From the IMG/VR virus record IMGVR_UViG_3300031992_000012, positions 32,001 through 96,000 of that record: a stretch of 64,000 bases of DNA. One strand, 5' to 3'. Positions 21,690 to 41,322 of this stretch are shown piece after piece. The DNA comes from a virus (Duplodnaviria; Caudoviricetes). Numbering within the stretch: the first letter of the stretch is position 1; every line of letters begins with the position of its first letter. The position numbers were made by a program, and so were the translations under genes. A model generated the notes under the pieces. The model did no database searches. It was not told the DNA's origin and saw nothing but the letters and a program-made list of their open reading frames with translations.

Positions 21690-22562
21690 ATGAATTGTGA
21701 AAAAGTTGTGAACGAAATTGTATCCTGGATTAAGAACTATTGGAAAAACAACGGCATGGAGAACGCCGTCATCGGCATGTCCGGTGGAAAGGACTCCACG
21801 GTGGCGGCCGCCCTGCTCATCAAGGCGCTTGGCGTCGACCACGTCTTCGGCCTGAGCATGCCCGACTCCGACGAGCGCGTGCTTCCGGCCGCCAGCGATA
21901 CCATGACGGCCGTCCGGGCGGTTGGCATGTACCAGTTTGAGGTGTTCCCGCTGGGCGGCGTCAAGACGCTCATGCGGGGCACCTTCGTCGACTGCACCCT
22001 CCAGACGCCAAGCCATCAGGCCGACCTGAACATCATGCCCCGCCTGCGCATGGCGGCCCTGTATCAATATTCACAGACGATCGGCAAGTCGCTGGTGGCC
22101 TGCAACGCCAACCTGTCCGAAATCATCGCCGGATATGGCACGCTGTTCGGGGACACCGCCGGCGACTTCGCCCTTCTCGCCAACCTTCTTGTCAACGAGG
22201 TCGTCGAAATAGGCGAGTACCTCGGGATACCGGCCGACATCGTCAGACGCCCTCCGGCCGACGGGCTTACCGGAAGGACGGACGAGGAGGTCCTCGGTTT
22301 CAGATACGACGACGTGGCCTCCCTATATTGGCGTATCGCCAAGGAGTTCGATTGCGAATATCCCTGCGACGTCATGTTCACGCTTTCCGTAATCAAGTCC
22401 GGCCTTCCGGACGAAGAGGAGGAGAAGCCTTATGTGGACTTCCGCAACTCCCTGCCGGAAAACGAGAAGAAGGTCCTGGCGGCGTACGCCCGCAACGAGT
22501 TCAAGCGCAACATGCTGTTCATTCCCGGACCGGAATTCCTTCTTGCGGATCTGGAGGGCTGA
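21690..22562 (+). CDS. nadE: NH3-dependent NAD+ synthetase
   Basis: PP-loop IGMSGGKDS, NIMPRLRM, GYGTLFGD, PPADGL, TDEEVLG; no glutaminase domain. Confidence 0.95.
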   Translation: MNCEKVVNEIVSWIKNYWKNNGMENAVIGMSGGKDSTVAAALLIKALGVDHVFGLSMPDSDERVLPAASDTMTAVRAVGMYQFEVFPLGGVKTLMRGTFVDCTLQTPSHQADLNIMPRLRMAALYQYSQTIGKSLVACNANLSEIIAGYGTLFGDTAGDFALLANLLVNEVVEIGEYLGIPADIVRRPPADGLTGRTDEEVLGFRYDDVASLYWRIAKEFDCEYPCDVMFTLSVIKSGLPDEEEEKPYVDFRNSLPENEKKVLAAYARNEFKRNMLFIPGPEFLLADLEG

Positions 22563-22565
22563 CAC

Positions 22566-23777
22566 ATGATTATCAACTCATTGCTTAGAAACGACTTATA
22601 CAAATTCTCCATGTTCGACGTAGTGGACCGCTACTACTCCGACATGGAGGTTGAGATAACCTTCAAGTGCCGGAGCGACGCCAAGATTGGCTATCTTCTC
22701 CCTTATGTGGCTGAGGAAGCCGACCGGCTTTGCCAGCTTCGCTTCACGCCGGAGGAAATGCTGTACATCAAGAACACTCTTCGCTGGCTGTCCCCGAGCT
22801 GCATCAGTTTCCTATGCCGTCTGCAGCTCAACCGCGAGCAACTGCATATCAGCGTCGACCCGGACGGCCAGCTAGTCATCAAGGCGATTGGCCCATGGAG
22901 AGACGTAATCTGGTTTGAAGTCCCGGTACTCGCCATCGTCGAGGAACTGTACATGGAATACCAGTTGCACGAGCTCAAGAAGTCCATAGGAGCAGACGCC
23001 TTCCACCAGAGACTCCAGCAGGAGCGCGACAACCTCGACAGGAAAATCGACGCCCTCAACGCAATCAACGACGAGTTCCCGTTCCGCCTGTCGGAGTTCG
23101 GCCTCCGCCGCCGTCGTTCCGCCGAATGGCAGGACTACGTTGTCGGCCGCATGAAGGAACGCGCCAGATTCTTCGCCGGGACCTCGGACGTCTACCTGGC
23201 CATGAAACATGGGGTCAAGCCTTCCGGCACGATGGCGCACGAAATCTACATGGGCGTGCAGGGCGACGACAACACGTCGCTCCGCAATGTCCAGCGAAAG
23301 ACGTGGGACCTCTGGATGAAGACGTTCCACGGCGACAACGGCATCATGCTCACCGACATCTTCGGAGCCAATGCCTGCTTCCGCGACATGGACTGGCTGG
23401 TCGCCCACTCGTTCACGGGTTTCCGCCATGACAGCGGCGACCCGATTGCATGGGGCGACAAGCTGATCGCCCGTTTGACCGAACTGGGCATAGACCCCAA
23501 GGAGAAGGTCGGCGTCTGGAGCGACTGCCTCGACGTCGACGCAATCCGTGAAATCGCCATGCACTTCTCCGGCCGCATCAAGGTCTCATTCGGTGTGGGC
23601 ACGAACCTGGTCAACATGTTCCCCGGCGTCAAGCCGCTGAGCATCGTCATGAAGATGACGAAGGCCAACGGACGGGCCGTTCTGAAACTGTCCGACGACG
23701 AAGGGAAGGGCATGTGCCCAGACCCGACCTTGGTTGAGTACGCCAAGAGCCTTTTCGACTTCCAACCTGTCAAATAA
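22566..23777 (+). CDS. pncB: Nicotinate phosphoribosyltransferase
   Basis: SLLRNDLYKFSM, EFGLRRR, GTS, GTMAHE (phospho-His), RHDSGDP, FGVGTNL, KLSD; E. coli-type PncB rather than NadV. Confidence 0.94.
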   Translation: MIINSLLRNDLYKFSMFDVVDRYYSDMEVEITFKCRSDAKIGYLLPYVAEEADRLCQLRFTPEEMLYIKNTLRWLSPSCISFLCRLQLNREQLHISVDPDGQLVIKAIGPWRDVIWFEVPVLAIVEELYMEYQLHELKKSIGADAFHQRLQQERDNLDRKIDALNAINDEFPFRLSEFGLRRRRSAEWQDYVVGRMKERARFFAGTSDVYLAMKHGVKPSGTMAHEIYMGVQGDDNTSLRNVQRKTWDLWMKTFHGDNGIMLTDIFGANACFRDMDWLVAHSFTGFRHDSGDPIAWGDKLIARLTELGIDPKEKVGVWSDCLDVDAIREIAMHFSGRIKVSFGVGTNLVNMFPGVKPLSIVMKMTKANGRAVLKLSDDEGKGMCPDPTLVEYAKSLFDFQPVK

Positions 23778-23790
23778 AGGAGAAACATTT

Positions 23791-24597
23791 ATGAAAAGCT
23801 TTTCACAATGCCTCAACGCCGACGAGGCCGAGGCCTTCCGCCGTTCCAACTCACCGGTCGTCCTTGTCAAGGACTGCGCGGTAGTCGGCCAGTCCCTGTC
23901 GGGGCAGCTTATTCGTGATGAAAAGGACGGGGCGGTGACGCTGTCCTGCGTCCTCATGAACGACGAGAACACCACAATCCCGATTGATGACGCGTTCACG
24001 TCGTTTAACGACGCCGAGAGCTACATCGAGGAAACTCTCTCCGAACAGCACGCCCACGACATCCTCGTCATCATCGACGCCCAGATTGGCTTCATCACGG
24101 GGAGTCTTGCGAACAAGACGGCCCAGGAGAAAATCGGGCAGTACCCGCATCTCATCCGCTGCTTCTCCAAGTCGCTCATCGTGGCAACCCAGGATACGCA
24201 CGGCGAGAACTATCTTGAGACGCTCGAAGGCAAAAAGCTCCCGGTTCCGCACTGCATGTACAAGACGCGCGACTGGGAACTAGAGCCCGGCGTGGTGAAG
24301 GCCCTGGCCGCCGTCGGCAACCACGCGTGGGGTGTCAACAAGCCCACCTTCGGCCATGTCGGATGGGCCGAGACCTTCAACGTGGCGAAGTCCGTCTCGG
24401 GCTGCCCGGCGGACGGCGACATCTACGTGGCCGGTTTCTGCACTGACATCTGCGTAATCAGCAACTTGCTGATTTTGCGCGCATTGTACCCCGACCGCCG
24501 CATTGTGTGCCTCGGCGCCTACTGCGCCGGCACTTCCAAGAAGGCCCACGACGCCGCCGTCTTTGTCATGACCTCCAGCCAGATTGAAGTGGCATGA
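23791..24597 (+). CDS. pncA: Nicotinamidase (isochorismatase-like cysteine hydrolase) with N-terminal extension
   Basis: IIDAQ (Asp), TQDTH and PHC metal ligands, NKPTFG (Lys), GFCTDICV (Cys); AAGGAG SD; operonic with nadE-pncB. Confidence 0.85.
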   Translation: MKSFSQCLNADEAEAFRRSNSPVVLVKDCAVVGQSLSGQLIRDEKDGAVTLSCVLMNDENTTIPIDDAFTSFNDAESYIEETLSEQHAHDILVIIDAQIGFITGSLANKTAQEKIGQYPHLIRCFSKSLIVATQDTHGENYLETLEGKKLPVPHCMYKTRDWELEPGVVKALAAVGNHAWGVNKPTFGHVGWAETFNVAKSVSGCPADGDIYVAGFCTDICVISNLLILRALYPDRRIVCLGAYCAGTSKKAHDAAVFVMTSSQIEVA

Positions 24598-25208
24598 TGG
24601 AATGGGAGCGGCACAGCCCGCTGTGCGTCCTCGTGCGCAAGGGCCATCAGGTCTTCGCGTACGAGGACAAGGATAAGCTCCCGAAGACCTACGGGAGCGA
24701 GAGTTTCAAGTGCAGCGTGAACACCGGATTCCAGGACCTCAGCCCGGCGGCCTATGTCGTCGGGCAGGCGAGGGACAAGAACTGGCTTGCGCTTGTATTC
24801 ACGGGCAGGCAGCTTGTGCTCTACGACCGTCGTTGCGAGAGATACCTAGGTAGGTACACCGACCCGTTCGGCGGTTTCCCCTGGTATCCGAAAAAAGCCA
24901 TAGACGAGTGGGGCATAGGCTACGCCCTGGATTACTTCCGAAACATAGGCGGACGTCTTTTCGAGGAATACCAGGATGCCTTCATACCGGCGCCGTACGT
25001 CTGGACGTTCACGTCCAAATGGACGAGCGCGATTGTGAGGGCAATCAAGCTCATTCCCGAGGAAAAGGTGGAGCGTCTATCCTGGAAGGAAGACCTGGTC
25101 ACCATACGCATGTCCAGCCCAGGGCAGCGTCTGCTCAATAAACTGGCCGAGATAGATGAAGGCTCGACATGGAGGGACGATGTCCGCGTGGATAGACGGT
25201 GTTGGTAA
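24594..25208 (+). CDS. Hypothetical protein, paralog of 45153-45749
   Basis: Shared YDRRC and P.YVW motifs. Confidence 0.7.
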   Translation: MMEWERHSPLCVLVRKGHQVFAYEDKDKLPKTYGSESFKCSVNTGFQDLSPAAYVVGQARDKNWLALVFTGRQLVLYDRRCERYLGRYTDPFGGFPWYPKKAIDEWGIGYALDYFRNIGGRLFEEYQDAFIPAPYVWTFTSKWTSAIVRAIKLIPEEKVERLSWKEDLVTIRMSSPGQRLLNKLAEIDEGSTWRDDVRVDRRCW

Positions 25209-25290
25209 TCCCTACAGGATTTACCACAGCTCGGAGGAGGAGACCGGGCCTTCGGGCCCGGCCCCTTCTCCTGATTTAGCAGGTAGAAAC

Positions 25291-25644
25291 ATGGAAAAGG
25301 AATTCACAGACAATTTCGTGATGGCCGTAGAGAGCCTTACTAGCGACTTCCTCATGACCTACTGGGGCTCGAGGGATAGCTGGGAGTTCACGCCTCCCCT
25401 GAAAATGGCCAGCGTGGAACGTCTAAACATGTTGCAACTTGACATAAAGGACGACCTTAGATGGGTAAGGGACAGGATTGAGGACGGGGCCGTGTTCTTC
25501 GTTATGAGCCAGGGGTCTGACGGGAGATGGTCCGTCTCGCGTTCCGTTCCCATCAAGGACCTGCTCGATCTTCATAGCATCATGATTGACACAGGTTTGT
25601 TTCCAAAGGAGGGCAAATGGACGAGCATAGCGATACTCTCGTGA
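25291..25644 (+). CDS. Hypothetical protein, tandem family A
   Basis: FTPPLKMASVE; LRWVRDRIEDG. Confidence 0.7.
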   Translation: MEKEFTDNFVMAVESLTSDFLMTYWGSRDSWEFTPPLKMASVERLNMLQLDIKDDLRWVRDRIEDGAVFFVMSQGSDGRWSVSRSVPIKDLLDLHSIMIDTGLFPKEGKWTSIAILS

Positions 25645-25970
25645 AAACTCTCGAGGAGATGAAGAGTGAACGCTGCGTGACCATGTTGTGCGAGGCGCTC
25701 GAGGACGACCCGGAGGACTACAACTACGGAGATGGCTGTAAAGTCGTAATCCGATATGTGGAAAACGCGTTTGATCTTATTCGCAGATGCTGCAAGTCCG
25801 ACACGAGGTGGCTTCTCGGCTATGTGCGCGTAGGATGCGCTTTCTCCGTGTTCGTCCTGTACGGGACGGGCACCGTGTCGCTTGTCCGCGTCTTGGGGCC
25901 GCAGCAAATGCGGAAACTTAAGGCCTGGCTTCACTTGGGCCTGACAGAGGAGGAAAACCATGCCACTTGA
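25617..25970 (+). CDS. Hypothetical protein, tandem family A
   Basis: TRWLLGYVRVG. Confidence 0.65.
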   Translation: MDEHSDTLVKTLEEMKSERCVTMLCEALEDDPEDYNYGDGCKVVIRYVENAFDLIRRCCKSDTRWLLGYVRVGCAFSVFVLYGTGTVSLVRVLGPQQMRKLKAWLHLGLTEEENHAT

Positions 25971-26304
25971 CGGAAAATTCATGGACATCCTCGAGAGTCT
26001 TACACCCGAGGAATGTCGTCAACTGAGAAGCGCGCTGGGAGAGAGCTACGGTCCACCCCACGCAACAAGATTCGTGCACGCCGAAAGGCTGCTTCCATGT
26101 CTGGAAAACAGGAAGACCATAAGGTGGTGTCTCGATCGTGTGCGCGGAGGGTACGAGTTCTTCCAGATGGCGCTGCCCACCAAGGATGACCCGCACTACT
26201 ATGTCCACCGTTCCTTCCACCACACCCTGAGGGAGCCGTTGCTCAAATGGCTTCTTGGTCATAACAAGATTACCCAGGAGGAATACAAGAGATGGTTGAT
26301 CTGA
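25960..26304 (+). CDS. Hypothetical protein, tandem family A
   Basis: IRWCLDRVRGG. Confidence 0.7.
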   Translation: MPLDGKFMDILESLTPEECRQLRSALGESYGPPHATRFVHAERLLPCLENRKTIRWCLDRVRGGYEFFQMALPTKDDPHYYVHRSFHHTLREPLLKWLLGHNKITQEEYKRWLI

Positions 26305-26666
26305 GAGACCAGGTGGAGATAATGATGGGGCGCGACGAGGACGACCTTCCGGTCTCCTCCAAACTCGTCAGAGAGCTGGAGGAGCTGTCATCGGCGGATT
26401 TGCACAAGATGTTCTACGCGCTCACAGGACACGGATACGAGGGTAGGCTTTTCGTCCGTCATATAGAGCATATCGGCGACATCCTTCCGAGATGCGAAAG
26501 GGAGTCGATAGAATGGATTATGAGGAAGATACATCTCAACATCCAGATGGTGTTGTTCCGTTTCCACTTTGACGTACAGCTCGAGGCCGTCCGCGTTGTG
26601 CTGACGGACGACCTCGATAAACTCGATGACGCCTTGCACAAACTAAGAAGAGGAGAACTTGAATGA
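26292..26666 (+). CDS. Hypothetical protein, tandem family A
   Basis: IEWIMRKIH. Confidence 0.65.
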   Translation: MVDLRDQVEIMMGRDEDDLPVSSKLVRELEELSSADLHKMFYALTGHGYEGRLFVRHIEHIGDILPRCERESIEWIMRKIHLNIQMVLFRFHFDVQLEAVRVVLTDDLDKLDDALHKLRRGELE

Positions 26667-27079
26667 GCAACATACTCTACGACGATGTTGTCAAGACCAG
26701 GGCTCTCCTTGAAAGGCTATACCGGATCAAGGACGACCCGAGGGTGATCAGCATCCTGAAAGGCTGCATGCACCTCGACCCTGCGTCCGAGGTGCATCTT
26801 CTATCGCTTGTCGACCGACCGGAACTCGTCTATGGCGAAATCCGGAGGCTCAAGGCCACCGACGCGGACGCCCGCGAAACACTTAACTGGCTTGTAAGAA
26901 GCTACTGCCAGCAGATGTGCGTGGACAGACGCGGAGGACGAGGGACGGAATTCCTTATAGCCGAGAAAAACGGCGGGGACCGTTTCTGCATTCACAGCGA
27001 CTGGGGTCTCAGCGCAACGGCGCTATGGGACGCCTGCCGGAACTCGTTGCCCGACGTTACAGAAGGGCTGAGGAGATAG
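26663..27079 (+). CDS. Hypothetical protein, probably family A
   Basis: LNWLVRSY; coupled. Confidence 0.65.
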   Translation: MSNILYDDVVKTRALLERLYRIKDDPRVISILKGCMHLDPASEVHLLSLVDRPELVYGEIRRLKATDADARETLNWLVRSYCQQMCVDRRGGRGTEFLIAEKNGGDRFCIHSDWGLSATALWDACRNSLPDVTEGLRR

Positions 27080-27080
27080 G

Positions 27081-27500
27081 ATGAAGGAAATTTTCGAGAT
27101 AGAGGAAATCCCTGTCGAGGACGAACAGGACGTGACCTATATGGAGGAGATATGCAGGCAGCCGGGAGACTGGCATAGCGGGTTTGTCAGAAGTGTGTAC
27201 ACGCACACGTTTGACAACTTCGACAGCCTTGAATTGACCCCTCCCCTGAGGATAGCGAGCGTCGAAGGCGTATCCGCTTTCCTCGCGGAGGGGTTCCCAG
27301 GACCGAGGTACGACCTTTACTACCTGCTTGACAGAATCCGCCGTGGCTACCGCTACTTCATAGCGTACTCGCGTTCAATGCCTTATGACAGGTATATCGC
27401 AGTTCCATGGAAAGGCGTGCACCCCTTCAACGTGTACAACTTCGTCCGTATTTACCTTGAAACAAAAGCAGACACGGCCGGCGAGAGCCATCCGTGCTAG
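27081..27500 (+). CDS. Hypothetical protein, tandem family A
   Basis: LTPPLRIASVE; LYYLLDRIRRG. Confidence 0.7.
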   Translation: MKEIFEIEEIPVEDEQDVTYMEEICRQPGDWHSGFVRSVYTHTFDNFDSLELTPPLRIASVEGVSAFLAEGFPGPRYDLYYLLDRIRRGYRYFIAYSRSMPYDRYIAVPWKGVHPFNVYNFVRIYLETKADTAGESHPC

Positions 27501-27522
27501 GAACATTGGAGGGCAATCCAAA

Positions 27523-27969
27523 TTGGAAAGAACATGGACATTCAGGTCTCCCGATCCGGGTAGCACCATTGCCCGAATCAACGAGAAAGTAGACTTCATC
27601 TCAGGACTGGGCGACGACCTGAACGAGAAGCTGGCGCAGGACGTCAACAACCACCAGATATTCAGTGGAGGGAGTGAGAAGGGCCCCAGAAGGTTCGTCT
27701 CCGTCTATACGCGGTCTCTCGAAAGGATGATCGCCCATATAATGACGTACCCTTCATGCCCCGACAAGCATCATACTATTCTGTGGATTCTCCGCAGGGT
27801 AAGGGACATAGTCGAGGCCAGAAAGTGCGACGGGTTAATCTACGAGCTTGAGCCGGAGAAAAACGGACGGCAGATTCCTGTCATATGGGGTTTCTCTCCC
27901 TCGTCCGACATTGCGGACGCGTTTTCACGCTCCATTGAACGTGTGACCGGAACACGGGGAGGATCGTGA
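27523..27969 (+). CDS. Hypothetical protein, probably family A
   Basis: TTG start after GGAGG; ILWILRRVRD. Confidence 0.6.
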   Translation: MERTWTFRSPDPGSTIARINEKVDFISGLGDDLNEKLAQDVNNHQIFSGGSEKGPRRFVSVYTRSLERMIAHIMTYPSCPDKHHTILWILRRVRDIVEARKCDGLIYELEPEKNGRQIPVIWGFSPSSDIADAFSRSIERVTGTRGGS

Positions 27970-28373
27970 TGAGCAATCCGCCTCCCTTAAGAAACATGCG
28001 ACAACTCGAGCTGGAGGAGGAGATGCACCGGCTGGTGCGTGCCCTTCCAAAGCGGGTTGTCAAACGCGCGATATTCGACATTCTTGGAGTTGCCGCCTTC
28101 GGGGGTTCCATCAACAATTGCCGGATACTTGATATGACCAGGAGGGAAGACGCCGTGTGGCTGATACACAAGTTCAGCGGCATGAGCAGGGCGAACAGGA
28201 GATGGAGCATACAGATGCTTCTGTACACGATGCGAAAGGGCGTGTGGCTGTTCCTCACCCAGGGGCTCGGAGGCCAGGAGCATATCTACCACGGACAGGC
28301 TACAATGGACAGCAAGACGCTAAGGTCGTTTTGCTCGCTTCTAAGACAGAAACTTAAAGAACAGGAGGCATAA
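27966..28373 (+). CDS. Hypothetical protein, probably family A
   Basis: IQMLLYTMRKG. Confidence 0.65.
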   Translation: MMSNPPPLRNMRQLELEEEMHRLVRALPKRVVKRAIFDILGVAAFGGSINNCRILDMTRREDAVWLIHKFSGMSRANRRWSIQMLLYTMRKGVWLFLTQGLGGQEHIYHGQATMDSKTLRSFCSLLRQKLKEQEA

Positions 28374-29474
28374 ATGAGCGAAAGAAAACTATGCTACAAA
28401 GTCTTGATTGACGAAATAACCCCGATTCCCGAATCGGACAACCTTGAGCTGGCGCGAATAACCGGCTGGCGATGCGTTGTGCAGAAGGGAGAGTTCAAGG
28501 TCGGCGACACTGCCTTGTACTTTGAAATCGACAGCGCGCTTAACCCGCACGACGACCGGTTCGCCTTCCTGAAGGAGCGTTGCTACAAGAAGTTCCTGGA
28601 CGCCTCGAAGAACCTGTTCGACGAGTGCATCCGCATACGTACCATCAAGCTGCGCGGCCAGTTGTCGCAAGGCCTGCTGATTCCGGTCAAGGACTTCTGC
28701 GAAGTGCGCAACAAGAAAATCGGCGAAAGCTGCGCCGACGTCCTCTGCGTCCGCCACTACGACGAAGTGGCGGAACGCGCCGTCCGCGAGACAACGCCGT
28801 TCATCGCCCCCAACCAGAAGGGACTGTTCCCTGCCTGGGCGGGTCCGAAGACTGACGAAGAGCGTGTGCAGAACCTTACGGACCAGGACCTTGACGAACA
28901 CTGGGACGACGAGCTGGAAGTCACGGAGAAGATTGACGGCACCTCGATGACCGTCGCCTACTCCGCCGTCAACCGCCCCGACGACCCGGTTGCCGTCTGC
29001 AGCCGCAACTTCGAGCTGAAGGACATGCCGAGCGCCTACTGGGACATGGTGCATGAGCTGAACCTCGACGTCAAGTTGAAGGAGTGGTGCGAGACGCACG
29101 GAACCGAAATAACAATACAGGGCGAGCTCAACGGCCAGGGCATCCAGAACAACCGCGATTGCAAGCCGGGGCGCAGCTTCGACGTGTTCCGTATCTGGAA
29201 CATCACGGAGGGCCGCTGGATTCCGCCGAGCGAACGCTACGTAATTGTGAAGGAACTCGGTCTGAACCACGTCCCGGTTCTCGAGACACGCCGTATCAGC
29301 AGCTTCGACGACGGCTCGCGCGACTTCGTGAAGGTCCGCGACGCCATCCTGTCGTACGCCGAAGGCAAGACCGCCAACGGGAACGAGCGGGAAGGCATCG
29401 TGTTAAAGGAGCTGAACGGCAACGGCTTCAGCTTCAAGGCCGTGTCCAACGCGTATCTGCTTAAACTGAAATGA
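28374..29474 (+). CDS. RNA ligase (DRB0094/Rnl2-like family)
   Basis: N-terminal OB module PIPESDNLE...WRCVVQKGEF...YFEIDS, KLRGQLSQGL; motif I EKIDGTSMT, QGEL, EREGIV, FKAVSNAYL. Confidence 0.93.
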   Translation: MSERKLCYKVLIDEITPIPESDNLELARITGWRCVVQKGEFKVGDTALYFEIDSALNPHDDRFAFLKERCYKKFLDASKNLFDECIRIRTIKLRGQLSQGLLIPVKDFCEVRNKKIGESCADVLCVRHYDEVAERAVRETTPFIAPNQKGLFPAWAGPKTDEERVQNLTDQDLDEHWDDELEVTEKIDGTSMTVAYSAVNRPDDPVAVCSRNFELKDMPSAYWDMVHELNLDVKLKEWCETHGTEITIQGELNGQGIQNNRDCKPGRSFDVFRIWNITEGRWIPPSERYVIVKELGLNHVPVLETRRISSFDDGSRDFVKVRDAILSYAEGKTANGNEREGIVLKELNGNGFSFKAVSNAYLLKLK

Positions 29475-31632: not shown

Positions 31633-31636
31633 TCTT

Positions 31637-32406: not shown

Positions 32407-32441
32407 TCATCGCATTTGTTTGTTCAAAAAGGAGGCTTGCA

Positions 32442-32732
32442 ATGAAAAGAATATCACTATTTTTGAGCAAGACCGGACAGGTCCGCTGCTCCCAGGAGGA
32501 GGCGAGGCATCCCGACGAAGTGGTCGAAGGGCTGGCCGCGCGCTCCGGCGCGTCCTCCTGGGAAATCTATGTGAAGGACGATATGGGCGAACGTGGTCTT
32601 CTTTCAGCCAACGCCAAACTGGCCGACAAGGCGGTGAGAGACCTCAAGACGTCTTTGGGTGGCGTGGAGGCGTTCGCCTCCTCGCTTCGTTCGAGAATGG
32701 CGGAGGCGCCGGATGCTGCGGAAGAACCCTGA
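32442..32732 (+). CDS. Hypothetical protein
   Basis: AAGGAGG SD. Confidence 0.7.
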   Translation: MKRISLFLSKTGQVRCSQEEARHPDEVVEGLAARSGASSWEIYVKDDMGERGLLSANAKLADKAVRDLKTSLGGVEAFASSLRSRMAEAPDAAEEP

Positions 32733-33282: not shown

Positions 33283-33746
33283 CTTACAACGAAGCTTGCA
33301 AGAAACTGTATCCTAATGCCTGCGCAATCCTCTTGAAGCTCGGAATACAGTGGGGGCTGGACGACTCGGCCGCAAAGCTCCGTGCCGGGCTGATGGAGGA
33401 CGACGGCGCCTTCCTGGACGCCGTGGAGTTGTTTATCAAGTTCAAACGCATGGTGGACGGATTCGTGCGGATACACGGCAGGAACATATACGGGAATCTG
33501 ATTCGGTTCGACGACGTCCAGTCGTTAAGGGCCGGGATGGACCTGTTTCGCTTGAGAATAGAAAGAAGGGGGCGTTCCTTTGTCTTCCGTAACATACGGG
33601 AGGGAAACCAGATCGCTTTCTTGCGAACGGCAGAGGATTCCTGTTCGTACTGGATTGTGTTCAGCAAACGCGACGAGCTGGTAACGAGCGAGATTTTTGC
33701 CAGCGCCTACTGCACCGTTGTCAACGTAAGGGAAGGAGGCGTATGA
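33279..33746 (+). CDS. Hypothetical protein, tandem family B
   Basis: EDDGAFLDAVEL...GNLIRFDD. Confidence 0.75.
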   Translation: MTYNEACKKLYPNACAILLKLGIQWGLDDSAAKLRAGLMEDDGAFLDAVELFIKFKRMVDGFVRIHGRNIYGNLIRFDDVQSLRAGMDLFRLRIERRGRSFVFRNIREGNQIAFLRTAEDSCSYWIVFSKRDELVTSEIFASAYCTVVNVREGGV

Positions 33747-34222
33747 TGTTCCGCGAATATCCAAAGAAAGTGCTGCAGAAGTATCATGGCATGGCCGTGG
33801 GCATACTTGAAAGGGCGGATATGAAACGATATCCTCCAAACGACCCGCAGCTCTACCATGCGATTTTTGAGCTTCTCTACGAAAACGACACGGCGTTCAT
33901 GGACGCCCTGGAGCTGTACCTGAACGCCAAGCTCGAACAGGAAGGGAAGATGGAGATTCACGATTCCATCATCCAGCAGATGATACGTCTGGACGACCCC
34001 GATTCCATAAAGAGGGCCGCCGGATGGCTTCGCGAATGCGCGATAAGGAGCAGGAACACGTGGGAGGCGTTCACAGGGGCGAGGGTCCTGGCCTTTCTGA
34101 GGGCAGATAATACTGCCTGCGGCCAGTGGTTCGTCTATCCTGAACGCGAAGAGTTCTTCACCAACGAGTGCATGAAGGATTCCGCCAAGTTCATGTCGCA
34201 GGTATTGAGGTCTTGCTCATGA
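33743..34222 (+). CDS. Hypothetical protein, tandem family B
   Basis: ENDTAFMDALEL...QMIRLDD. Confidence 0.75.
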   Translation: MMFREYPKKVLQKYHGMAVGILERADMKRYPPNDPQLYHAIFELLYENDTAFMDALELYLNAKLEQEGKMEIHDSIIQQMIRLDDPDSIKRAAGWLRECAIRSRNTWEAFTGARVLAFLRADNTACGQWFVYPEREEFFTNECMKDSAKFMSQVLRSCS

Positions 34223-34704
34223 TTACGTCATTGACTGCTGTATACCGCGCGGAGGCCCTCAGGCTACTGCAGCGGATGTCCCTGTCGGCCACACAACCTG
34301 ACCGGGACAAGCTCGTGGCGGACATCAAGGACCGTATGGAGACGGACGACAAACTCTTCCTCGACGGTCTCGACCTTCATATCCGATGGCATCACGAAGT
34401 CGAGAACCGGGTGGTGAACATATACGGCAGGACGGTGTTCGGAAACCTGGTGCGGTTCGACAACCGGGAGTCCATCAGGGCGAGCGCCGACATGGTCAGG
34501 TACGTAATCTATGGCACAGGCCGCAGGTTCCGCTTCATGCCTCGCGGCATCGAGACCGGCGAATTCATCGGTCTTCTCAAGACGTCCATGAACGACCCTG
34601 ACTCATTCTGGGTGATACACGATGACAAGAGCGAGAGCGTCACGCGTGAGTGCCTAGAGTGCGCCGCCCTGATAGTCCCGGAAATAATGGAGGACACCAG
34701 ATGA
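34219..34704 (+). CDS. Hypothetical protein, tandem family B
   Basis: ETDDKLFLDGLDL...GNLVRFDN. Confidence 0.75.
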   Translation: MITSLTAVYRAEALRLLQRMSLSATQPDRDKLVADIKDRMETDDKLFLDGLDLHIRWHHEVENRVVNIYGRTVFGNLVRFDNRESIRASADMVRYVIYGTGRRFRFMPRGIETGEFIGLLKTSMNDPDSFWVIHDDKSESVTRECLECAALIVPEIMEDTR

Positions 34705-35120
34705 GCAGGACCTGGCCTGAGCCGTGGAGGGACGATTCCGCCCATATGGAGACCGACCTGCTTGTCCAGAGGGTGAACCTTCTCATCGACAACAACGTCG
34801 ATATACACTTCACCATAAACATGGTTTCCTTCGAGGTAATCGGCCACGTGCACAACATGGACGACGAGGAGGTGCGCGACGTCCTCTGCAAGTACGAGAA
34901 GACAAGCCTGCTGGAGCGTCCGACCAAACCAGAGCTCCGTGACAGGGCATGGAGAAGGGGGATGATGGTGAGGCTTCACTACCAGACCCCTCCTGCCCGC
35001 AACGGAGGCGTAGTCCAGTGGGCGTTCATAGAAAGGGGCTCCAACTTCTTCAACGAGCTGGAGAGATTCGTCAGAGCTAACATGCCCGAAGCATATGGAG
35101 GAATGGTGCCTGATGGATAG
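34701..35120 (+). CDS. Hypothetical protein
   Basis: Coupled ORF, GGAGG SD. Confidence 0.65.
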   Translation: MSRTWPEPWRDDSAHMETDLLVQRVNLLIDNNVDIHFTINMVSFEVIGHVHNMDDEEVRDVLCKYEKTSLLERPTKPELRDRAWRRGMMVRLHYQTPPARNGGVVQWAFIERGSNFFNELERFVRANMPEAYGGMVPDG

Positions 35121-35589
35121 GACCTACAGGGAGGCTGTCGACGCTGTCACTTTGCTCAACGACGAGCTTGCGATGACCGGCACACGGGTGGGGCCAGTCC
35201 TCCTGTGCTGGCGTCGCGGCAGTCGCTACATAACCTATGTTCAGAGGGGACAGGCGTCCCTGATCGATTCAGAAGAGGGATTCGGCCTTCTCCAAGACAA
35301 GATAAGGCTGGACCCTTATTTCGCAAAAGGGCGGGACGATCGTGTGACAAGGCTGCTCAAACCTATCAGGGACGGGTTCGAGATAATACTCGTGCCCGTA
35401 AAGGCCGTCTATGGAAACCACGGCTACACCGCCACGACAATGGAACGCTCCGTCTTCGGGTACACCGGGGTCCTGCTCCTGTATGTGCCCGGGGAGTGGT
35501 GCAGGCATGCCCTGAATATGGCCAGAAGGCGGATTCAGGAAAGACAACGGGAAACAATGAGGCCGTTATGGATGTCAAGGATTTTATGA
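35113..35589 (+). CDS. Hypothetical protein
   Basis: Coupled ORF. Confidence 0.65.
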   Translation: MDRTYREAVDAVTLLNDELAMTGTRVGPVLLCWRRGSRYITYVQRGQASLIDSEEGFGLLQDKIRLDPYFAKGRDDRVTRLLKPIRDGFEIILVPVKAVYGNHGYTATTMERSVFGYTGVLLLYVPGEWCRHALNMARRRIQERQRETMRPLWMSRIL

Positions 35590-36026
35590 AACTTCCGGAG
35601 ATTGAGCGCATAGACATGGTGAACTCCTGGTTCAGGAGGGCTACGAGCAACAGGGCCGGGATGTTCCCTATAATAGCAAGACTCACGGAAACACGCGAAG
35701 GCACCCGGTTCGTAATGTGTCTGACAGGAACTGTAATGCCTGTTAACTACAACTCCGTTCTCAGGTTCATAAGGCAGTCCAGGCAGGACAGAATCGGCAA
35801 GATGGACTTGCGGGACTTGATAAAAGACCTGGAGTTCGGGATCGCGGAGCCGGACATTCTTTTTGCGCCTACCGCCATAGGCTTTTTCGATGAAGGGTAT
35901 ACGGGCTTTCCCTGGCTTCGCCCCGGAACGGGCTGTCTGAAGGCCTGTAATTGGAAGTCTTCCATAATCGGGTGCATCGTGGAGGCCGTTTTAGGAAAGG
36001 GCACATTCGAAGGAGTCGAACTATGA
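35568..36026 (+). CDS. Hypothetical protein, tandem family C
   Basis: MDVKDFMKLPEIERIDMVNSWF. Confidence 0.7.
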   Translation: MDVKDFMKLPEIERIDMVNSWFRRATSNRAGMFPIIARLTETREGTRFVMCLTGTVMPVNYNSVLRFIRQSRQDRIGKMDLRDLIKDLEFGIAEPDILFAPTAIGFFDEGYTGFPWLRPGTGCLKACNWKSSIIGCIVEAVLGKGTFEGVEL

Positions 36027-36499
36027 ACAGAAAACAATTCTCGCAGCTTCCTACTGAAAGGATAACGGAAATGGTGAACCAGTGGTTCGACGAATTCCCA
36101 AAGTGCAGGCCATTGCTGGTCGTGCCTAGGAACCCGCGCCACTCGGACTGCTTCTGCATGACCCGGCGCATGATATGCGAGTCCGACGAGGAGGGGATTG
36201 GCAGCACAATCCTCTGGCTCAAGAAGAACAATCGTTCCTCGTCCTCCATTCTGGGCGAAATGAGGAAGGAGATAGAGCGGCAGGACTTCGTCGGCTTTAT
36301 TTTCTATACCACAATCGTCGCGTTCCAGGTGAACTTGACGACGCTGCCCAGCAAGGCGCTGTCCTACTCGCCTTCCGATGGGTTGATATTCGTCACGCGC
36401 GAAAATCTGCTCCATGGCTGCAACGGAATGCTGGTGGATGTCGTGAACGACATAACAGGGGCGCAAAGGAGGTTCCAGGAATGGAGAAACGTAAAATAA
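36023..36499 (+). CDS. Hypothetical protein, tandem family C
   Basis: MNRKQFSQLPTERITEMVNQWF. Confidence 0.7.
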   Translation: MNRKQFSQLPTERITEMVNQWFDEFPKCRPLLVVPRNPRHSDCFCMTRRMICESDEEGIGSTILWLKKNNRSSSSILGEMRKEIERQDFVGFIFYTTIVAFQVNLTTLPSKALSYSPSDGLIFVTRENLLHGCNGMLVDVVNDITGAQRRFQEWRNVK

Positions 36500-36909
36500 G
36501 GGAACTGTCCCCCATGGACTTCATTGCGCTCTGCAACGAGTTCTACTACAAGTACAGGGATGTCGACAAAGGTCTGTGCCCGGTAATCGACGTGACCTCG
36601 ACACCGATGTTCTGGTATGTGTTCGAGCCTTTCTGTCCGGCGACGGACGAGGGGTTATACATGTTCCTCCGCAAAGCCACGGTTAACCATGTCTTGTCCG
36701 GACGTTATCACACCATGGCGATACGACACGCCGACAAGCTTGAGGACCCCAACCTTCTAGGATTCTCCCCGGCTGTAGGCCACAACGGAGGAATGCTCAT
36801 AAACGACTATTCCTTCGAGGCGAAGACAGGGCCGTCCTACTACTGGACGATAGAGCGATCAGGGCCTTCATATGAAGCGTTTATCTCGATATTGTCCAGA
36901 GCCATGTGA
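36481..36909 (+). CDS. Hypothetical protein, tandem family C
   Basis: MEKRKIRELSPMDFIALCNEFY. Confidence 0.7.
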   Translation: MEKRKIRELSPMDFIALCNEFYYKYRDVDKGLCPVIDVTSTPMFWYVFEPFCPATDEGLYMFLRKATVNHVLSGRYHTMAIRHADKLEDPNLLGFSPAVGHNGGMLINDYSFEAKTGPSYYWTIERSGPSYEAFISILSRAM

Positions 36910-36914
36910 ACAAC

Positions 36915-36947
36915 GCCGCCGGGCGTCAAACCCCGGCGGTCTTTTTT
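36915..36947 (+). terminator. Rho-independent terminator
   Basis: GCCGCCGGG/CCCGGCGGT plus T6. Confidence 0.75.
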
Positions 36948-37017
36948 AGCTTGTAGAACCCGTTGTAAATTAAAACTGTTGCACTCATATACTCTTAATA
37001 ATAAAGCAGGCCTTGAG

Positions 37018-38148
37018 ATGACCGAGGAACTTAGGAAAATATTGATTAAGACGGCTGCAGAACCGCAGGAGGAGCCTTTCCGCCCGGCCCTGATAGGCGA
37101 CCCTGTTAAGTTCGCCAAGCAGACCAAGCCGTTCAAGATTAGCGACGCGGCCATATCGGCCGGCGTCTGGATGGCAGGCGCCCTGTTCTGGGGCAAGATG
37201 ATGGAGATATGGAACGGGAAGACCATCGACAACTACTGGGAGCGCACCGACCCTTATGCCGGACTAAAGGACGAGAACGGCAATCCTACCGAGGATTACG
37301 ACAAGGCCAGGTTCCATGACAGGATGGGGAAGATCGCACGTCTTCTGTCGGCGGGCGGAGCCGGTTTCCTGTCCAGTGTCGTTGACCAGGCGATAGGCGG
37401 GCAGCCGTACAACTACATGGGCTACAAGGTTCCTACAACGCCCAAGGACATAGTGATAGCTTTCACGGGCGCGGGCTCCGGCGCGCACCGCGCAAGGAAA
37501 GGCCGTGAGCACGACATGGACGTAGCCGACCTTGACAGCCGTTATGGAAAGGGCCGCTACGCCCTGTTCAACCACAAGCATCTCAGGGAGGCCCAGGAGT
37601 TTCTCATGAACCTTCCGCCCGGATGCCGTATAAGAATCCAGGGACACTCGTATGGCGGCTCATCGGCATGGAAGCTGGCGCAGTTCGCCAGCGATAACGG
37701 CATTCCAATAGACCGTCTCGACACCTTGGACCCAATCGGAATGTCCCCCGAAATGCAGTTCAAAGGCAAACCTGAGCTGGTAAAGACATGGGAGAACCAT
37801 CTCCCCAAGAAGCGCCGGCTATGGTACTGGCCTGACTTCCTCGCCACAATTGGCCATGTCCGTCGTGAACTCAAGGGGGCGGACAACAAGATTTACACGG
37901 AGCCGCAGTACAACGATCATAGCGGAATCCGTCTTGTCGACTTCGCGGGCGACAAGAAGCGCAATCTCCAATATGACATGAACGCCGACCACCCGTTAAG
38001 CGCGTTCACCGAGGAAGGGCTTCTTACCAAGACCGCTTCGGACTGGAAGAACTGGTACAGGGAGCGTAAAGCTGCCGTCAACACAGACGCCAAGGATTAC
38101 GCAAGCTCCTCTTTCCGTGCACTTGTAGGAAAGTTGACGGGTATATAG
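37018..38148 (+). CDS. Alpha/beta-hydrolase fold protein (lipase/esterase-like) with KTA leader
   Basis: Nucleophile elbow GHSYGG, TLDPI, NDH; N-terminal LIKTAA and C-terminal LTKTAS. Confidence 0.8.
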   Translation: MTEELRKILIKTAAEPQEEPFRPALIGDPVKFAKQTKPFKISDAAISAGVWMAGALFWGKMMEIWNGKTIDNYWERTDPYAGLKDENGNPTEDYDKARFHDRMGKIARLLSAGGAGFLSSVVDQAIGGQPYNYMGYKVPTTPKDIVIAFTGAGSGAHRARKGREHDMDVADLDSRYGKGRYALFNHKHLREAQEFLMNLPPGCRIRIQGHSYGGSSAWKLAQFASDNGIPIDRLDTLDPIGMSPEMQFKGKPELVKTWENHLPKKRRLWYWPDFLATIGHVRRELKGADNKIYTEPQYNDHSGIRLVDFAGDKKRNLQYDMNADHPLSAFTEEGLLTKTASDWKNWYRERKAAVNTDAKDYASSSFRALVGKLTGI

Positions 38149-38176
38149 CACGACGTTCAAATAATAAGGAAACAAT

Positions 38177-38761
38177 ATGAACTGGAATGACATCAAGGCG
38201 ATTGCCAAGCGTGGCATCGCGCAGAAGAAAGCAACGGAAGAGAAGATTGAACGCACCAACGAGCTGATGACGAAGTACGCCGTAGCCAAGCAGGCCAGCG
38301 ACACGGTCGACCTTATGAAGCGCACCGCCGAGATGCTGCGGGGCAAGATGCCGGCGCCAAAGCTGGGCAGCGACCCCTGTCTCCGCTCCCTGCGTCGCAA
38401 GCTCATAGCGGCCAAGCACGCCAACGACGGCTCCGACAGTTTCCAACGCGTTGGAAAATTGATACATGGGTTTATCAAAAGAGACCCGCTTGCCCGCATC
38501 GCCAAGATAGCGGCCGACCGCGATGAACGGCTTGAGAAGGCCAAGTACAAGGAGGAGCAGGCGAAGACGGTCACCGAGGAAACCCGCAAGGGACAGCCCG
38601 AAAAACCCACCACGGCCCCGATGGAAGGTCAGCCGCATGACGGCGAAGGCCGTGAGGTAACTTTTGGCGACGGTCGCACAGTCACTTTCAAGAGCGCCTC
38701 CGAACGTCAGCAATGGCTCGCCAACAAGGTAAAGGAAGCATACAAGAGGGCCGGGATGTGA
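38177..38761 (+). CDS. Hypothetical basic protein with KxA motifs
   Basis: MNWNDIKAIAK; AKQAS. Confidence 0.75.
   Translation: MNWNDIKAIAKRGIAQKKATEEKIERTNELMTKYAVAKQASDTVDLMKRTAEMLRGKMPAPKLGSDPCLRSLRRKLIAAKHANDGSDSFQRVGKLIHGFIKRDPLARIAKIAADRDERLEKAKYKEEQAKTVTEETRKGQPEKPTTAPMEGQPHDGEGREVTFGDGRTVTFKSASERQQWLANKVKEAYKRAGM
38440..38457. repeat. Palindrome TTTCCAACGCGTTGGAAA within a CDS
   Basis: Perfect 18-bp palindrome, core of the 42618 element. Confidence 0.7.
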
Positions 38762-39465
38762 TTGACTGGGTCGGCGTAAAGCAGGCGGCCGACCCGCTCT
38801 GGAACCCTGAGCCCAACGTCCCGCCTGTATACAACAAATGGGTTCCTCGCCCCGCTTCCGGTTTTCACACGTTCGGAAGAGGCGACAATCTTATGGGGAT
38901 AGCCGACAGGTACGGTGTCTCTCATCGTCGTCTCGCTCTTGCCAATCCAACGCTTAGCCCGAACTCCATAAGGGAGGGTACCCGTGTAAACATTCCGATG
39001 AATGAGAGGGAATGGCTGATGAAGACTAAGGGCTTCGACCCGGAGGCCGTGTCCGCTCTTCCGGCAAATTTCGCAAAGGCCGTGCGGATGCAGGAGTCGC
39101 AGGACGGAAAGTACCTACGTCCGTTCGGCAACGCGTCGTCGGCCAGGGGCATCTACCAGATGCTGCGTGACAGGTTCAACATAACCAAGTCGCGCCACCC
39201 CGAGATGAAGACGTGGAACCACGACGACCTGCTCACCGACAACAGGAAGGCACAGCAGGCCTTCGACTGGACGATAAAGGACAACATGCGCCGTTACAAC
39301 TACCTCAACGGGACACCAATGCCGGTCAACATGATGATCCGCTCCTGGCACCAGCCAGGCAACTTGTACAACCAACGCGCAATCGACTACGAGAAAGCCG
39401 TAATGAAGCAGATGGAGCTTATCCTGCAGGCGGCGCAGAACAACCAGGTCACCAAGCTCAAATAG
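38758..39465 (+). CDS. LysM domain plus lysozyme-like/lytic transglycosylase protein with MIDW-VK-A leader
   Basis: LysM RGDNLMGIADRYGVS...ANP...IREGTRVNIP; SLT-like QES and SARGIYQM; GTG start overlaps upstream TGA. Confidence 0.85.
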   Translation: MIDWVGVKQAADPLWNPEPNVPPVYNKWVPRPASGFHTFGRGDNLMGIADRYGVSHRRLALANPTLSPNSIREGTRVNIPMNEREWLMKTKGFDPEAVSALPANFAKAVRMQESQDGKYLRPFGNASSARGIYQMLRDRFNITKSRHPEMKTWNHDDLLTDNRKAQQAFDWTIKDNMRRYNYLNGTPMPVNMMIRSWHQPGNLYNQRAIDYEKAVMKQMELILQAAQNNQVTKLK

Positions 39466-39494
39466 CTAAAAAAGAACCTGCTTCGAGTAATAAT
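39465..39494 (+). promoter_or_regulatory. Repeated phage promoter copy 5
   Basis: GCTAAAA-N14-AGTAATAAT. Confidence 0.75.
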
Positions 39495-39572
39495 ATTGTA
39501 GGAGGCAAGTTAGCAGCTTCCCTCCTGCGTCATGGCGGTACCCTTTGTGCTGCCGCCATTAAAGGTTTTACT

Positions 39573-39602
39573 GACCGGGGTTTCACAAACCCCGGTCTTT
39601 TT
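39573..39602 (+). terminator. Rho-independent terminator in leader
   Basis: GACCGGGGTTT/AAACCCCGGTC plus T5. Confidence 0.75.
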
Positions 39603-39700
39603 ATTTTAGGTCGTTGGTTTCAACTGGCGGCCCTGCTCCAATGTGCTTAGGAGTGGGGCCGCTTTTTATTAGTTTGTTTAGCACATAAAAAGGAGGGTTT

Positions 39701-40348
39701 ATGACAGTGCATGAAGTTACAATGCTCGACCTTGTGGGGACCAAGAAGATGCCGCCCGTTGACCGGCAGCATGTGCAGCTCCTGCTCAAGGCGGTACTGA
39801 GGTTCGTCAACATCCGTTACCAGACATCCCTGCAGCGTCCATGGGAGTTCTCGGCGGGGGACTGCGCCGAAGCTGTTTTCTCGCCGCTTGACCACGATAA
39901 CGTCGTCCATTGCCTTGCCGTGATAAAGCGGCTCCTTTGGCGTGTGCAGCTTCGTGTGTCGTCGTCGGTGGGCGTTTGGAACGTGGTTACGGACGGTGGC
40001 ATCAACGAGCAGGACGGCCCTGTGTTCTGGGCAGCCAAGGACGAGTTGCGGGCGGCCAAGGGGGAGAATGTCCGTGCACGGGTAAGGAAGGCGGTCTACC
40101 GTGACGACGAGTTTTCCGGCACAGTACCGGATACGGAGTCCTGCTTCCGTCTTGAAGCGGATTTCGCCAACGTCGACGGCATGACGCTGGAGGAGTCCAA
40201 CAGTGACTTTGAACGAATCTTCGACAGCGTCATAGGCGTAAACCGTCAGTTGGCGGATGTCATAAACCAGTCCAGGGCAGTGGTATGGCTTGCCAGACAG
40301 GCCGCCTTCGGAACCGATGGAAATTACTGGAGGTCCGCCCGTGTGTAG
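39701..40348 (+). CDS. Hypothetical protein
   Basis: AAGGAGG SD. Confidence 0.75.
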   Translation: MTVHEVTMLDLVGTKKMPPVDRQHVQLLLKAVLRFVNIRYQTSLQRPWEFSAGDCAEAVFSPLDHDNVVHCLAVIKRLLWRVQLRVSSSVGVWNVVTDGGINEQDGPVFWAAKDELRAAKGENVRARVRKAVYRDDEFSGTVPDTESCFRLEADFANVDGMTLEESNSDFERIFDSVIGVNRQLADVINQSRAVVWLARQAAFGTDGNYWRSARV

Positions 40349-40695
40349 CGATTTCCTGTCATTATGCGGCATAGCGCAGCCGGACTGGCTTATAGCGCTG
40401 ATGATTCTGTGGGTGGTAGTCTGTTTCCTGCAGTACATCACGCTCGTTGGACGTGTCGACGACATGCTTGTTATAGCCGTCTTTGTCTTCGAGGTTCTCC
40501 TGATGTTCGCCGTGGAATGCAAGTGGTGGGAGAACAAGGGGAACGAGATGGCCAAGGACGTACAAATGCAGATTTTCTACAACAGGTACGAATCCTGGGG
40601 AAATCACTGGAAGGACGAGAAGGCCCTTCCGTCGCTTGAAAGAATCGGCACCGAGGCGAAAGCCTATTTATACCGTAAGCAAAAAGGAGAAAACA

Positions 40696-41322
40696 ATGAA
40701 GAGGAAAAGACTGTTCTTCGGGGGCACGTTCGACCCCATACACATGGGCCACATTAACCTGGCGCTAAAGACAATAGAAATGGGGTACGCTGACGTCGTG
40801 TCGTTCATGCCCTGCGGCCATCCTTCGCATAAATCCTCGACAGGCGCCGACATGAACAGCCGACTAGCCATGGTCCGTCTCGCCTCGAAGGAATACAAAA
40901 ATCTAGAGTACACGGATTTGGACATCCATTCGGATTTGTCCTACACCTACATTACCGTGGACAGGATTCGCCGCGTGTTCCTGATCGACGAGGTAGGAAT
41001 GCTTATCGGCATGGACAGCCTTATCGACATGCACAACTGGGAGAAGGCGAAGGAGTTCACGAAGAAGATTCACTTCTTCACCTACCCGCGACCAGGAGTA
41101 ACGCCCCCTACCCTGGATCAGCTCACCGAGTGGTTCGACAGTGAAACCGCCTTCTCGCTGATGAGCGGGATAATGGGCGGAGTTACCGATCGAGACACAA
41201 TGAACGTTTCCAGCACTGAAATCCGCAAGGCGGTCAAGGAGCACAAGGGGCTTGAGAACCTTGTCCCGGCGTCCGTGGCCGAATATATCTACGACAACCA
41301 TTTATACGAAGAGGAGGATTAA
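40696..41322 (+). CDS. nadD: Nicotinate-nucleotide adenylyltransferase
   Basis: FGGTFDPIHMGH, P.HK, RLAMV, SYTY.T, LIGMDS, VSSTEIR, VAEYI...LY; AAGGAG SD at ATG 40696. Confidence 0.95.
   Translation: MKRKRLFFGGTFDPIHMGHINLALKTIEMGYADVVSFMPCGHPSHKSSTGADMNSRLAMVRLASKEYKNLEYTDLDIHSDLSYTYITVDRIRRVFLIDEVGMLIGMDSLIDMHNWEKAKEFTKKIHFFTYPRPGVTPPTLDQLTEWFDSETAFSLMSGIMGGVTDRDTMNVSSTEIRKAVKEHKGLENLVPASVAEYIYDNHLYEEED

Follow-up and report, generated by a model that had tools for sequence, protein, structure and literature searches.

A predicted four-step deamidating route from nicotinamide to NAD+ encoded by a large ruminant-gut phage

Results

Genes of the predicted NAD+ route

The window analysed here, 64 000 nucleotides in length, corresponds to bases 32001–96000 of a single 205,081-bp contig (56% G+C) held as a virus record in IMG/VR, and carries genes for four enzymes of nicotinamide adenine dinucleotide (NAD+) synthesis. 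Three of these, nadE, pncB and a pncA-like gene, form a tight cassette, while the fourth, nadD, is found on the same strand 16 kb further downstream (Table 1). A first-pass annotation made from the sequence had placed all four genes at these positions and had described their catalytic motifs as intact. Both statements were borne out by the open reading frames (ORFs), the start sites and hidden Markov model (HMM), motif and fold evidence, with SGGKDS found in the P-loop of NadE, GTMAHE in PncB, GGTFDPIHMGH and SSTEIR in NadD, and D96/K184/C221 in the PncA-like protein.

Table 1. Features located in the window and, for the candidate capsid gene, elsewhere in the 205,081-bp record.
Feature	Position	Strand	Basis or remark
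nadE, single-domain NH3-dependent NAD+ synthetase, 290 aa	21690..22562	+	PF02540, TIGR00552, P-loop, PDB
pncB, class-I nicotinate phosphoribosyltransferase, 403 aa	22566..23777	+	TIGR01514, NF003704, PF17767 and PF04095
pncA-like gene, 268 aa	23791-24597	+	isochorismatase domain, residues ~90-268
N-terminal extension of the PncA-like protein, ~88-90 residues	23791..24054	+	lineage-specific
Predicted nicotinamidase (PncA-type cysteine hydrolase) domain	24055..24597	+	PF00857, triad, metal ligands, fold
Strong intrinsic-terminator-like hairpin, 11-bp stem then T run	39573..39597	+	consensus match only
nadD, nicotinate-mononucleotide adenylyltransferase, 208 aa	40696..41322	+	TIGR00482, PF01467, motifs, PDB
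NADAR-domain gene, 171 aa	41325..41840	+	PF08719, 3.6e-54; not a pathway step
Candidate capsid gene	G000:C1:117868-118896 (= L003:17868-18896)	+	longer minus-strand ORF overlaps; atlas score 0.98

NadE matched PF02540 (6e-42) and TIGR00552 (140 bits; cut-off 63.65), and its best PDB matches were NH3-dependent NAD synthetases (2E18, 8e-28). The pncB gene starts 3 nt past the nadE stop and encodes a protein with both the NAPRTase_N and NAPRTase domains. This protein exceeded the cut-offs of two specific models (TIGR01514, 361.5 bits against 269.55; NF003704, 413 bits against 379) and matched PDB entry 1YIR at 8e-74 with the phospho-histidine motif aligned, the six top PDB matches all being nicotinate phosphoribosyltransferases (NAPRTases). 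The HMM check proposed in the first-pass annotation therefore identified this gene as PncB and not NadV or Namat. An independent gene caller applied to another assembly returned identical products of 290, 403 and 268 amino acids for the three cassette genes. A megablast search of the cassette against GenBank phages gave no match, and neither the PncB nor the PncA-like protein found close relatives in single-protein scans of IMG/VR; those of the PncA-like protein were reached with a family alignment.

The pncA-like gene begins with an ATG 13 nt past the pncB stop, preceded by AGGAG, and ends in a stop codon that shares bases with the ATG of the following ORF. Among the tests of its identification as pncA, the curated PncA model NF008623 gave no hit, whereas the Pfam match (PF00857, 2e-10, 41.5 bits, residues ~90–268), the triad and metal site, the fold and a family profile all agreed with it. 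In an alignment of the protein with 49 homologues, the catalytic residues D96, K184 and C221 and the metal ligands D135, H137 and H154 were invariant, and they align with D10/K94/C133 and D52/H54/H71, respectively, of the Pyrococcus horikoshii enzyme. The AlphaFold model had a mean predicted local distance difference test (pLDDT) score of 84, rising above 94 in the catalytic domain, and the top seven PDB matches of this model in Foldseek were all nicotinamidases. When the family profile was compared with the PDB, the top 11 matches were likewise nicotinamidases, ranked before any other amidase (1ILW, 2.4e-20; Bacillus subtilis PncA, 7e-17). Three independent lines, namely motifs, fold and profile, and gene neighbourhood, thus point to a nicotinamidase as the predicted activity of this hydrolase.

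Preceding the catalytic domain is an N-terminal extension that had no homologue among the 3467 family matches, all of which span only residues ~90–268. It was modelled with low pLDDT, had no usable feature match in a protein atlas, matched only non-specific small domains in structure searches and showed no similarity to a 121-aa ORF found at the same place in a related contig (L097). Its first 33 residues are kept as coding sequence in a variant contig (L099) that is 5–7% diverged, and a 209.5-kb relative encodes a PncA-like protein of 266 amino acids, so the extension is translated sequence.

The nadD gene starts at the ATG given in Table 1, which lies behind AAGGAG, and not at a TTG at 40636. 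Its product matched PF01467 and scored 123.4 bits with TIGR00482 (cut-off 112.45), and the nicotinate mononucleotide (NaMN) adenylyltransferases 1YUL and 1KAM were matched in the PDB at ~1e-19. A NADAR-domain gene starts 2 nt past the nadD stop. Its protein is nearer to PDB entry 8BAU (3.5e-23) than to YbiA (2B3W, 5e-8) and weakly matches a 'NADAR family anti-phage protein' model; by these similarities it is probably an ADP-ribose-removing or N-glycosidase enzyme, and it may reverse ADP-ribosylation. In 80 other viral loci PncA had no NADAR gene nearby, so the pairing with nadD is local. Scans for promoters and terminators around nadD returned nothing above chance except the hairpin listed in Table 1, which, judged by its stem and T run, probably closes an upstream unit; nadD and the NADAR gene would then belong to a unit that starts after it. 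Around the cassette, sigma-70 promoter matches (8 sites; 3.8 ± 1.9 expected) and terminator matches (12 sites; 9.4 ± 3.6 expected) were weak matches to the consensus and carry no weight as evidence; such scans are uninformative here, as the phage encodes an RNA polymerase of its own.

Conservation and relatives

Compared with the variant contig L099, the ratio of nonsynonymous to synonymous substitution rates (dN/dS) was 0.10 for nadE and 0.085 for pncB, so that both genes are under strong purifying selection. These low ratios, together with the identical products returned by the independent gene caller, show that the genes are not chance ORFs. The cassette is also kept in three diverged relatives, whose PncB proteins are 59%, 52% and 45% identical to that of the window. 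In the first of these (L097) the order is nadE-pncB-x-pncA. In the 209.5-kb contig, whose PncB is 45% identical, the order is as in the window, with an AAA ATPase upstream (separated from nadE by four small ORFs), then nadE-pncB-x-pncA and an RNA ligase downstream. A 172-kb relative (L098) carries pncA, a fused NadD-NadE protein and pncB. The middle gene of this relative (L098:4709-6001) encodes a single protein of 430 amino acids with a CTP_transf_like (NadD) and an NAD_synthase (NadE) domain, and is flanked by a PncA-family gene and PncB; this apparent fusion of NadD with NadE would hold the four activities in three genes.

Identity to named bacterial PncB reached a plateau at ~41%, the exception being one 53% match, labelled as a Clostridia metagenome-assembled genome (MAG), on a 24-kb contig. 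When 185,579 prokaryote genomes were scanned with PncB, the single match (35%) lay in an uncultured gammaproteobacterial MAG and hence gave no clue to a donor or host. Since bacterial PncB plateaus at ~41%, the genes were not captured recently from a known host; they have been long inherited within a lineage of ~200-kb ruminant-gut phages.

The family-alignment search found the same PncA subfamily in at least 471 IMG/VR contigs. Neighbourhoods were counted within 10 kb of PncA in the best 80 of these loci, and the survey of co-occurrence in phages that the first-pass annotation had called for showed that NadE is present in 60/80, a PRPP (phosphoribosyl pyrophosphate) synthetase in 51/80, a class-II NAPRT-like protein in 48/80, PncB in 13/80 and NadD in 9/80. 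All four enzymes of the window occur together in 7/80, in compact clusters with varied gene orders, such as the contiguous pncA-pncB-nadD-nadE of L076 (verified by NCBIfam) and the adenylyltransferase-nadE-pncB-pncA of L071. The commonest phage arrangement (48–51/80) was pncA, PRPP synthetase, a class-II NAPRT-like protein of ~530 amino acids, in some cases a small ORF, and nadE, in most cases lacking a NadD within 10 kb. In Phass-1, a published gut phage (OQ749652, L001:3861-8299), the order is pncA-prs-NAPRT-like-x-nadE. Its phosphoribosyltransferase is annotated as a nicotinamide phosphoribosyltransferase, and the best NCBIfam match of this enzyme was a nicotinate phosphoribosyltransferase model (348.8 bits, short of the 405-bit cut-off).

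Genes absent from the record

Whole-record searches found no NUDIX domain, no PRPP synthetase (Pribosyltran_N), no PnuC (NMN_transporter; the NadR kinase domain was not searched separately) and no second phosphoribosyltransferase in the 205-kb record, pncB being its only NAPRTase-family gene. What the first-pass annotation had noted for the window, that neither a PRPP synthetase nor a Nudix gene is visible, therefore holds for the complete record, and PRPP must come from the host. Nor was an NAD-dependent ligase, Tpt1, Macro or SIR2 protein found in the record, so that the feeding of phage-encoded NAD consumers is not an obvious purpose of the pathway.

The carrier genome and its neighbouring genes

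The carrier is a phage. The record has a CheckV completeness of 94%, 200 of its 259 greedy ORFs lie on one strand, and a single contig of ~201–205 kb of the same phage was recovered in several assemblies. Its RNA polymerase pieces match phage families, the closest being those of Vibrio and Salmonella jumbo phages at ~28% identity, and it also encodes a phage-type NrdD and an RNA ligase. An ORF of 342 amino acids scored 0.98 against clusters of HK97-type major capsid proteins in the protein atlas, clusters made up almost wholly of viral proteins, and by this score is probably the gene for the capsid, in a structural region that otherwise resisted annotation. Thirty large ORFs scanned with PHROG and Pfam gave almost no matches, among the few a weak one to a baseplate wedge, and the terminase and tail-sheath Pfam models found no match in the record. 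As these models were silent and most large ORFs are orphans, the lineage is deep-branching.

The phage was present in sheep gut metagenomes from two studies (77–100% of sampled words), and a goat-gut run yielded contigs mostly 95–99% alike to it. A 41.9-kb bovine-gut contig was collinear with 21600–41584, from nadE to nadD, and, at an identity of ~93%, comes from a related phage and not from that of the window. Short near-identical contigs over parts of 21.6–41.6 kb were found in a metatranscriptome run (X6); being contigs from an RNA library, they cannot show transcription, and the stretches left uncovered carry no meaning.

Directly upstream of nadE (19724–21650 of the window) lie an AAA ATPase of 374 amino acids, with weak nSTAND-like matches, and an orphan of 266 amino acids. 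The RNA ligase (phrog_968, 2e-76) is encoded at 28374–29474, ~4 kb downstream of the cassette. A ligase also lies downstream in the 209.5-kb relative and in L098, and it may travel together with the cassette. Two large genes of the window are of unusual structure. In an ORF of 1676 amino acids (7083–12113) the NrdD match is confined to the last ~680 residues, with a short DNA-polymerase-like PHROG match at residues 435–509; this could be an intein-bearing or a fused gene. At 39–3526, two adjoining ORFs both match the phage RNA polymerase family phrog_25354, and the second also contains a weak terminase/endonuclease-like stretch, a pattern consistent with an intein-split RNA polymerase subunit.

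Discussion

A probable phage-borne deamidating salvage route

In these four genes the phage probably carries a copy of the four-step deamidating salvage of nicotinamide known from bacteria, that is, a nicotinamidase followed by the Preiss–Handler route, which would keep up the NAD+ pool of the infected cell. From the gene identities, motifs, fold, conservation and selection observed above, we infer the following activities and substrate preferences, as well as the timing of expression and the role. By their identities the enzymes would lead from nicotinamide through nicotinate, NaMN and nicotinate adenine dinucleotide (NaAD) on to NAD+, consistent with the first-pass annotation. The PncA-type domain would hydrolyse nicotinamide to nicotinate and NH3, with Cys221 as nucleophile assisted by Asp96 and Lys184; Asp135, His137 and His154 would bind a metal. 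PncB would then join nicotinate to host PRPP to give NaMN, its enzyme class using an ATP-driven (adenosine triphosphate-driven) phosphorylation of histidine; NadD would convert NaMN and ATP to NaAD; and the single-domain NadE would make NAD+ from NaAD, ATP and free NH3. One NH3 would thereby be released in the first step and one used in the fourth. The most likely purpose is that recycling of nicotinamide sustains the NAD+ of the infected cell.

Several points weigh against this interpretation. The hydrolase misses the curated PncA model and scores only 41.5 bits with Pfam, its substrate is assigned from motifs, fold and gene neighbourhood, and its extension of ~88 residues is unexplained. The nadD gene lies outside the cassette, and a preference of NadD for NaMN over nicotinamide mononucleotide (NMN) is not readable from sequence. 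The host must also supply PRPP and two to three ATP for each NAD+ made, and since the route is already present in many bacteria the gain to the phage is uncertain.

Counter-defence or metabolism as possible roles

Bacterial immunity commonly ends in the depletion of NAD+, and experiments have demonstrated three phage pathways that restore it. By analogy with these, the genes might be a dedicated counter-defence that rebuilds NAD+ from the nicotinamide freed by SIR2, TIR or other NADases and so rescues the phage from abortive infection, a proposal to which we would give somewhat less than an even chance. It would account for the entry point of the route, which is nicotinamide, the product of NADase cleavage, and not only nicotinate, and it has the precedent of NARP1, NARP2 and NARP3. 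The searches for phage-encoded NAD consumers also found none that would explain a need for the pathway. Two neighbouring genes fit the same proposal: nadD is coupled to a NADAR gene, from a family that includes ADP-ribosylation-reversing enzymes and with a product nearer to 8BAU than to YbiA, and an RNA ligase is encoded in this region both in the window phage and in two relatives. However, a four-step route is costly in ATP and duplicates one that many hosts possess, and the 80 other viral loci showed no link of NADAR to PncA. The first-pass annotation had suggested that the deamidated intermediates may escape cleavage by defence NADases, but these intermediates would not protect the final product because the NAD+ made at the end is still a NADase substrate.

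The genes might instead serve plain auxiliary metabolism, raising or complementing NAD+ synthesis in a salvage-deficient or NAD-limited rumen host and so aiding the replication of a large phage, apart from any immunity. This, too, is a real possibility that falls a little short of even. NAD pathways of phage and host are reported to be often complementary in gut jumbo phages (PMC11662467), and the pathway occurs very widely among large gut phages that differ in lineage and gene order. In addition, infection by PA5oct, a jumbo phage without these genes, raises expression of the host pncA-pncB1-nadE operon, which suggests a general demand for NAD+. The absence from the record of the NAD-dependent enzymes searched for (NAD-dependent ligase, Tpt1, Macro and SIR2) tells against such a purely metabolic use. 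The two roles are not mutually exclusive and fit the data equally well.

A more specific form of the counter-defence proposal is that the cassette and nadD constitute a fourth NAD+ reconstitution pathway that beats SIR2- or TIR-mediated abortive infection, with the N-terminal domain of the PncA-like protein and the NADAR gene as adaptations to this conflict. Drawn by analogy, it is possible but on balance doubtful. The deamidating four-step route is widespread in large phages, as judged by the number of contigs with the PncA subfamily. The phage of the window offers a clean, selected and complete example with which the route could be tested against a defence.

It is improbable that the hydrolase is a different cysteine amidohydrolase, in which case the phage would encode only the three-step route from nicotinate. 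The weak Pfam score, the missing match to NF008623 and the unexplained extra N-terminal domain would all fit such an enzyme, as would the weak matches of phage relatives to a biuret-hydrolase model; N-carbamoylsarcosine amidase, biuret hydrolases and RutB also appear in the fold list, lower down. Against it stand the invariant triad and a metal site specific to nicotinamidases (D-x-H followed 17 residues on by H), the fact that nicotinamidases rank first in the fold and profile lists alike, and the location of the gene, which directly follows pncB here and adjoins NAD-synthesis genes across the IMG/VR loci. It is more improbable still that the contig is a bacterial chromosome or plasmid bearing ordinary housekeeping genes, a case that the silent terminase and tail-sheath models and the many large ORFs lacking a PHROG or Pfam match would favour, but that is contradicted, in agreement with the first-pass annotation, by the IMG/VR virus record and its CheckV value, the repeated recovery of a single contig, the extreme strand bias, the jumbo-phage-like RNA polymerase, the baseplate wedge match, the capsid-like ORF, the RNA ligase and phage-type NrdD, and the lack of any bacterial PncB above ~53% identity.

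Comparison with known systems

The first-pass annotation had set the route apart from the phage pathways NARP1 and NARP2, and its enzymology is indeed distinct, with no Adps/Namat, Nampt or Nudix in the record. NARP1 consists of Adps, a PRPS-like ADP-ribose pyrophosphokinase, and Namat, and starts from ADP-ribose; the record has no Pribosyltran_N match, and its only NAPRTase-family gene is PncB. NARP2 consists of Nampt and Nmnat, an NMN adenylyltransferase that is in many cases a fusion with Nudix (Osterman et al. 2024, bioRxiv 10.1101/2024.02.11.579819). Like the window set, it is phage-encoded and rebuilds NAD+ from nicotinamide and PRPP. However, NARP2 is a two-step amidated route via NMN, whereas that of the window needs two extra steps, deamidation and re-amidation; its phosphoribosyltransferase is PncB by equivalog HMM, its adenylyltransferase is NadD-type rather than NadM-type, and no NUDIX domain accompanies them. 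The original preprint on NARP1 and NARP2 makes no mention of PncA, PncB or NadE. NARP3, published in Science Advances in August 2026 (PMC13464706), combines a PnuC-like transporter with a NadR-like kinase/adenylyltransferase and uses nicotinamide riboside; no NMN_transporter match was found in the record, where the NadR kinase domain was not searched separately. NARP1 and NARP3 thus resemble the window set as phage systems that restore NAD+, and differ from it in substrates and genes. In the absence of a PRPP synthetase, Nudix, PnuC and a second phosphoribosyltransferase, the system of the window is none of the three.

The further claim that this is a 'third' route did not hold, given the publication of NARP3 in 2026, that of Preiss–Handler phage clusters in 2024 (PMC11662467), and the full four-gene clusters in other IMG/VR contigs. 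Our literature search turned up no experimental test of the deamidating four-step route against a defence system. The compact IMG/VR clusters and Phass-1 share with the window phage the PncA subfamily (37–45% identity) and a route from nicotinamide to NAD+ on a large phage. Most of the 80 IMG/VR loci have a class-II NAPRT-like protein and their own PRPP synthetase, with no detectable NadD nearby, in contrast to the class-I PncB and the lack of prs in the window phage.

The bacterial PncA-PncB-NadD-NadE salvage uses the same four enzyme families and chemistry and shows the same clustering of pncA, pncB and nadE, as in the pncA-pncB1-nadE operon of Pseudomonas aeruginosa (PMC7318152; PMC9316036). 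In the window the genes are viral: PncB is at most ~41% identical to named Proteobacterial PncB, as against 45–59% to metagenomic relatives (the three looked up being phage-like contigs), and the PncA subfamily, common in IMG/VR contigs, misses the curated model for PncA.

The closest published counterparts are the 174 'NAD-jumbo phages' with complete salvage or Preiss–Handler pathways reported by Li et al. (Microbiome 2024; PMC11662467), who described pncB-nadD-nadE clusters (e.g. in Kuafu_71) and mentioned phage pncA. That work was bioinformatic only, laid stress on NAD-consuming enzymes and on the frequent complementarity of phage and host NAD pathways in gut jumbo phages, and raised counter-defence as a possibility. 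NAD-jumbo phages are defined by a genome of >200 kb and all genes of at least one NAD+ route, and the 205,081-bp record with its four steps falls within this definition. Like them, the window phage comes from livestock guts (cow, sheep, pig, horse or deer in their case), encodes every step of an NAD+ route and has PncB, NadD and NadE. The idea that such genes feed NAD-consuming enzymes of the phage is unsupported here because none of those searched for (NAD-dependent ligase, Tpt1, Macro and SIR2) was found, a difference from the phages of Li et al. Phage Preiss–Handler gene sets were thus already described in 2024, and that of the window adds another member with local peculiarities: it is without prs or Nudix, it includes a nicotinamidase-like enzyme with an N-terminal extension of ~88 residues, and its nadD is coupled to a NADAR gene and separated from the cassette by 16 kb.

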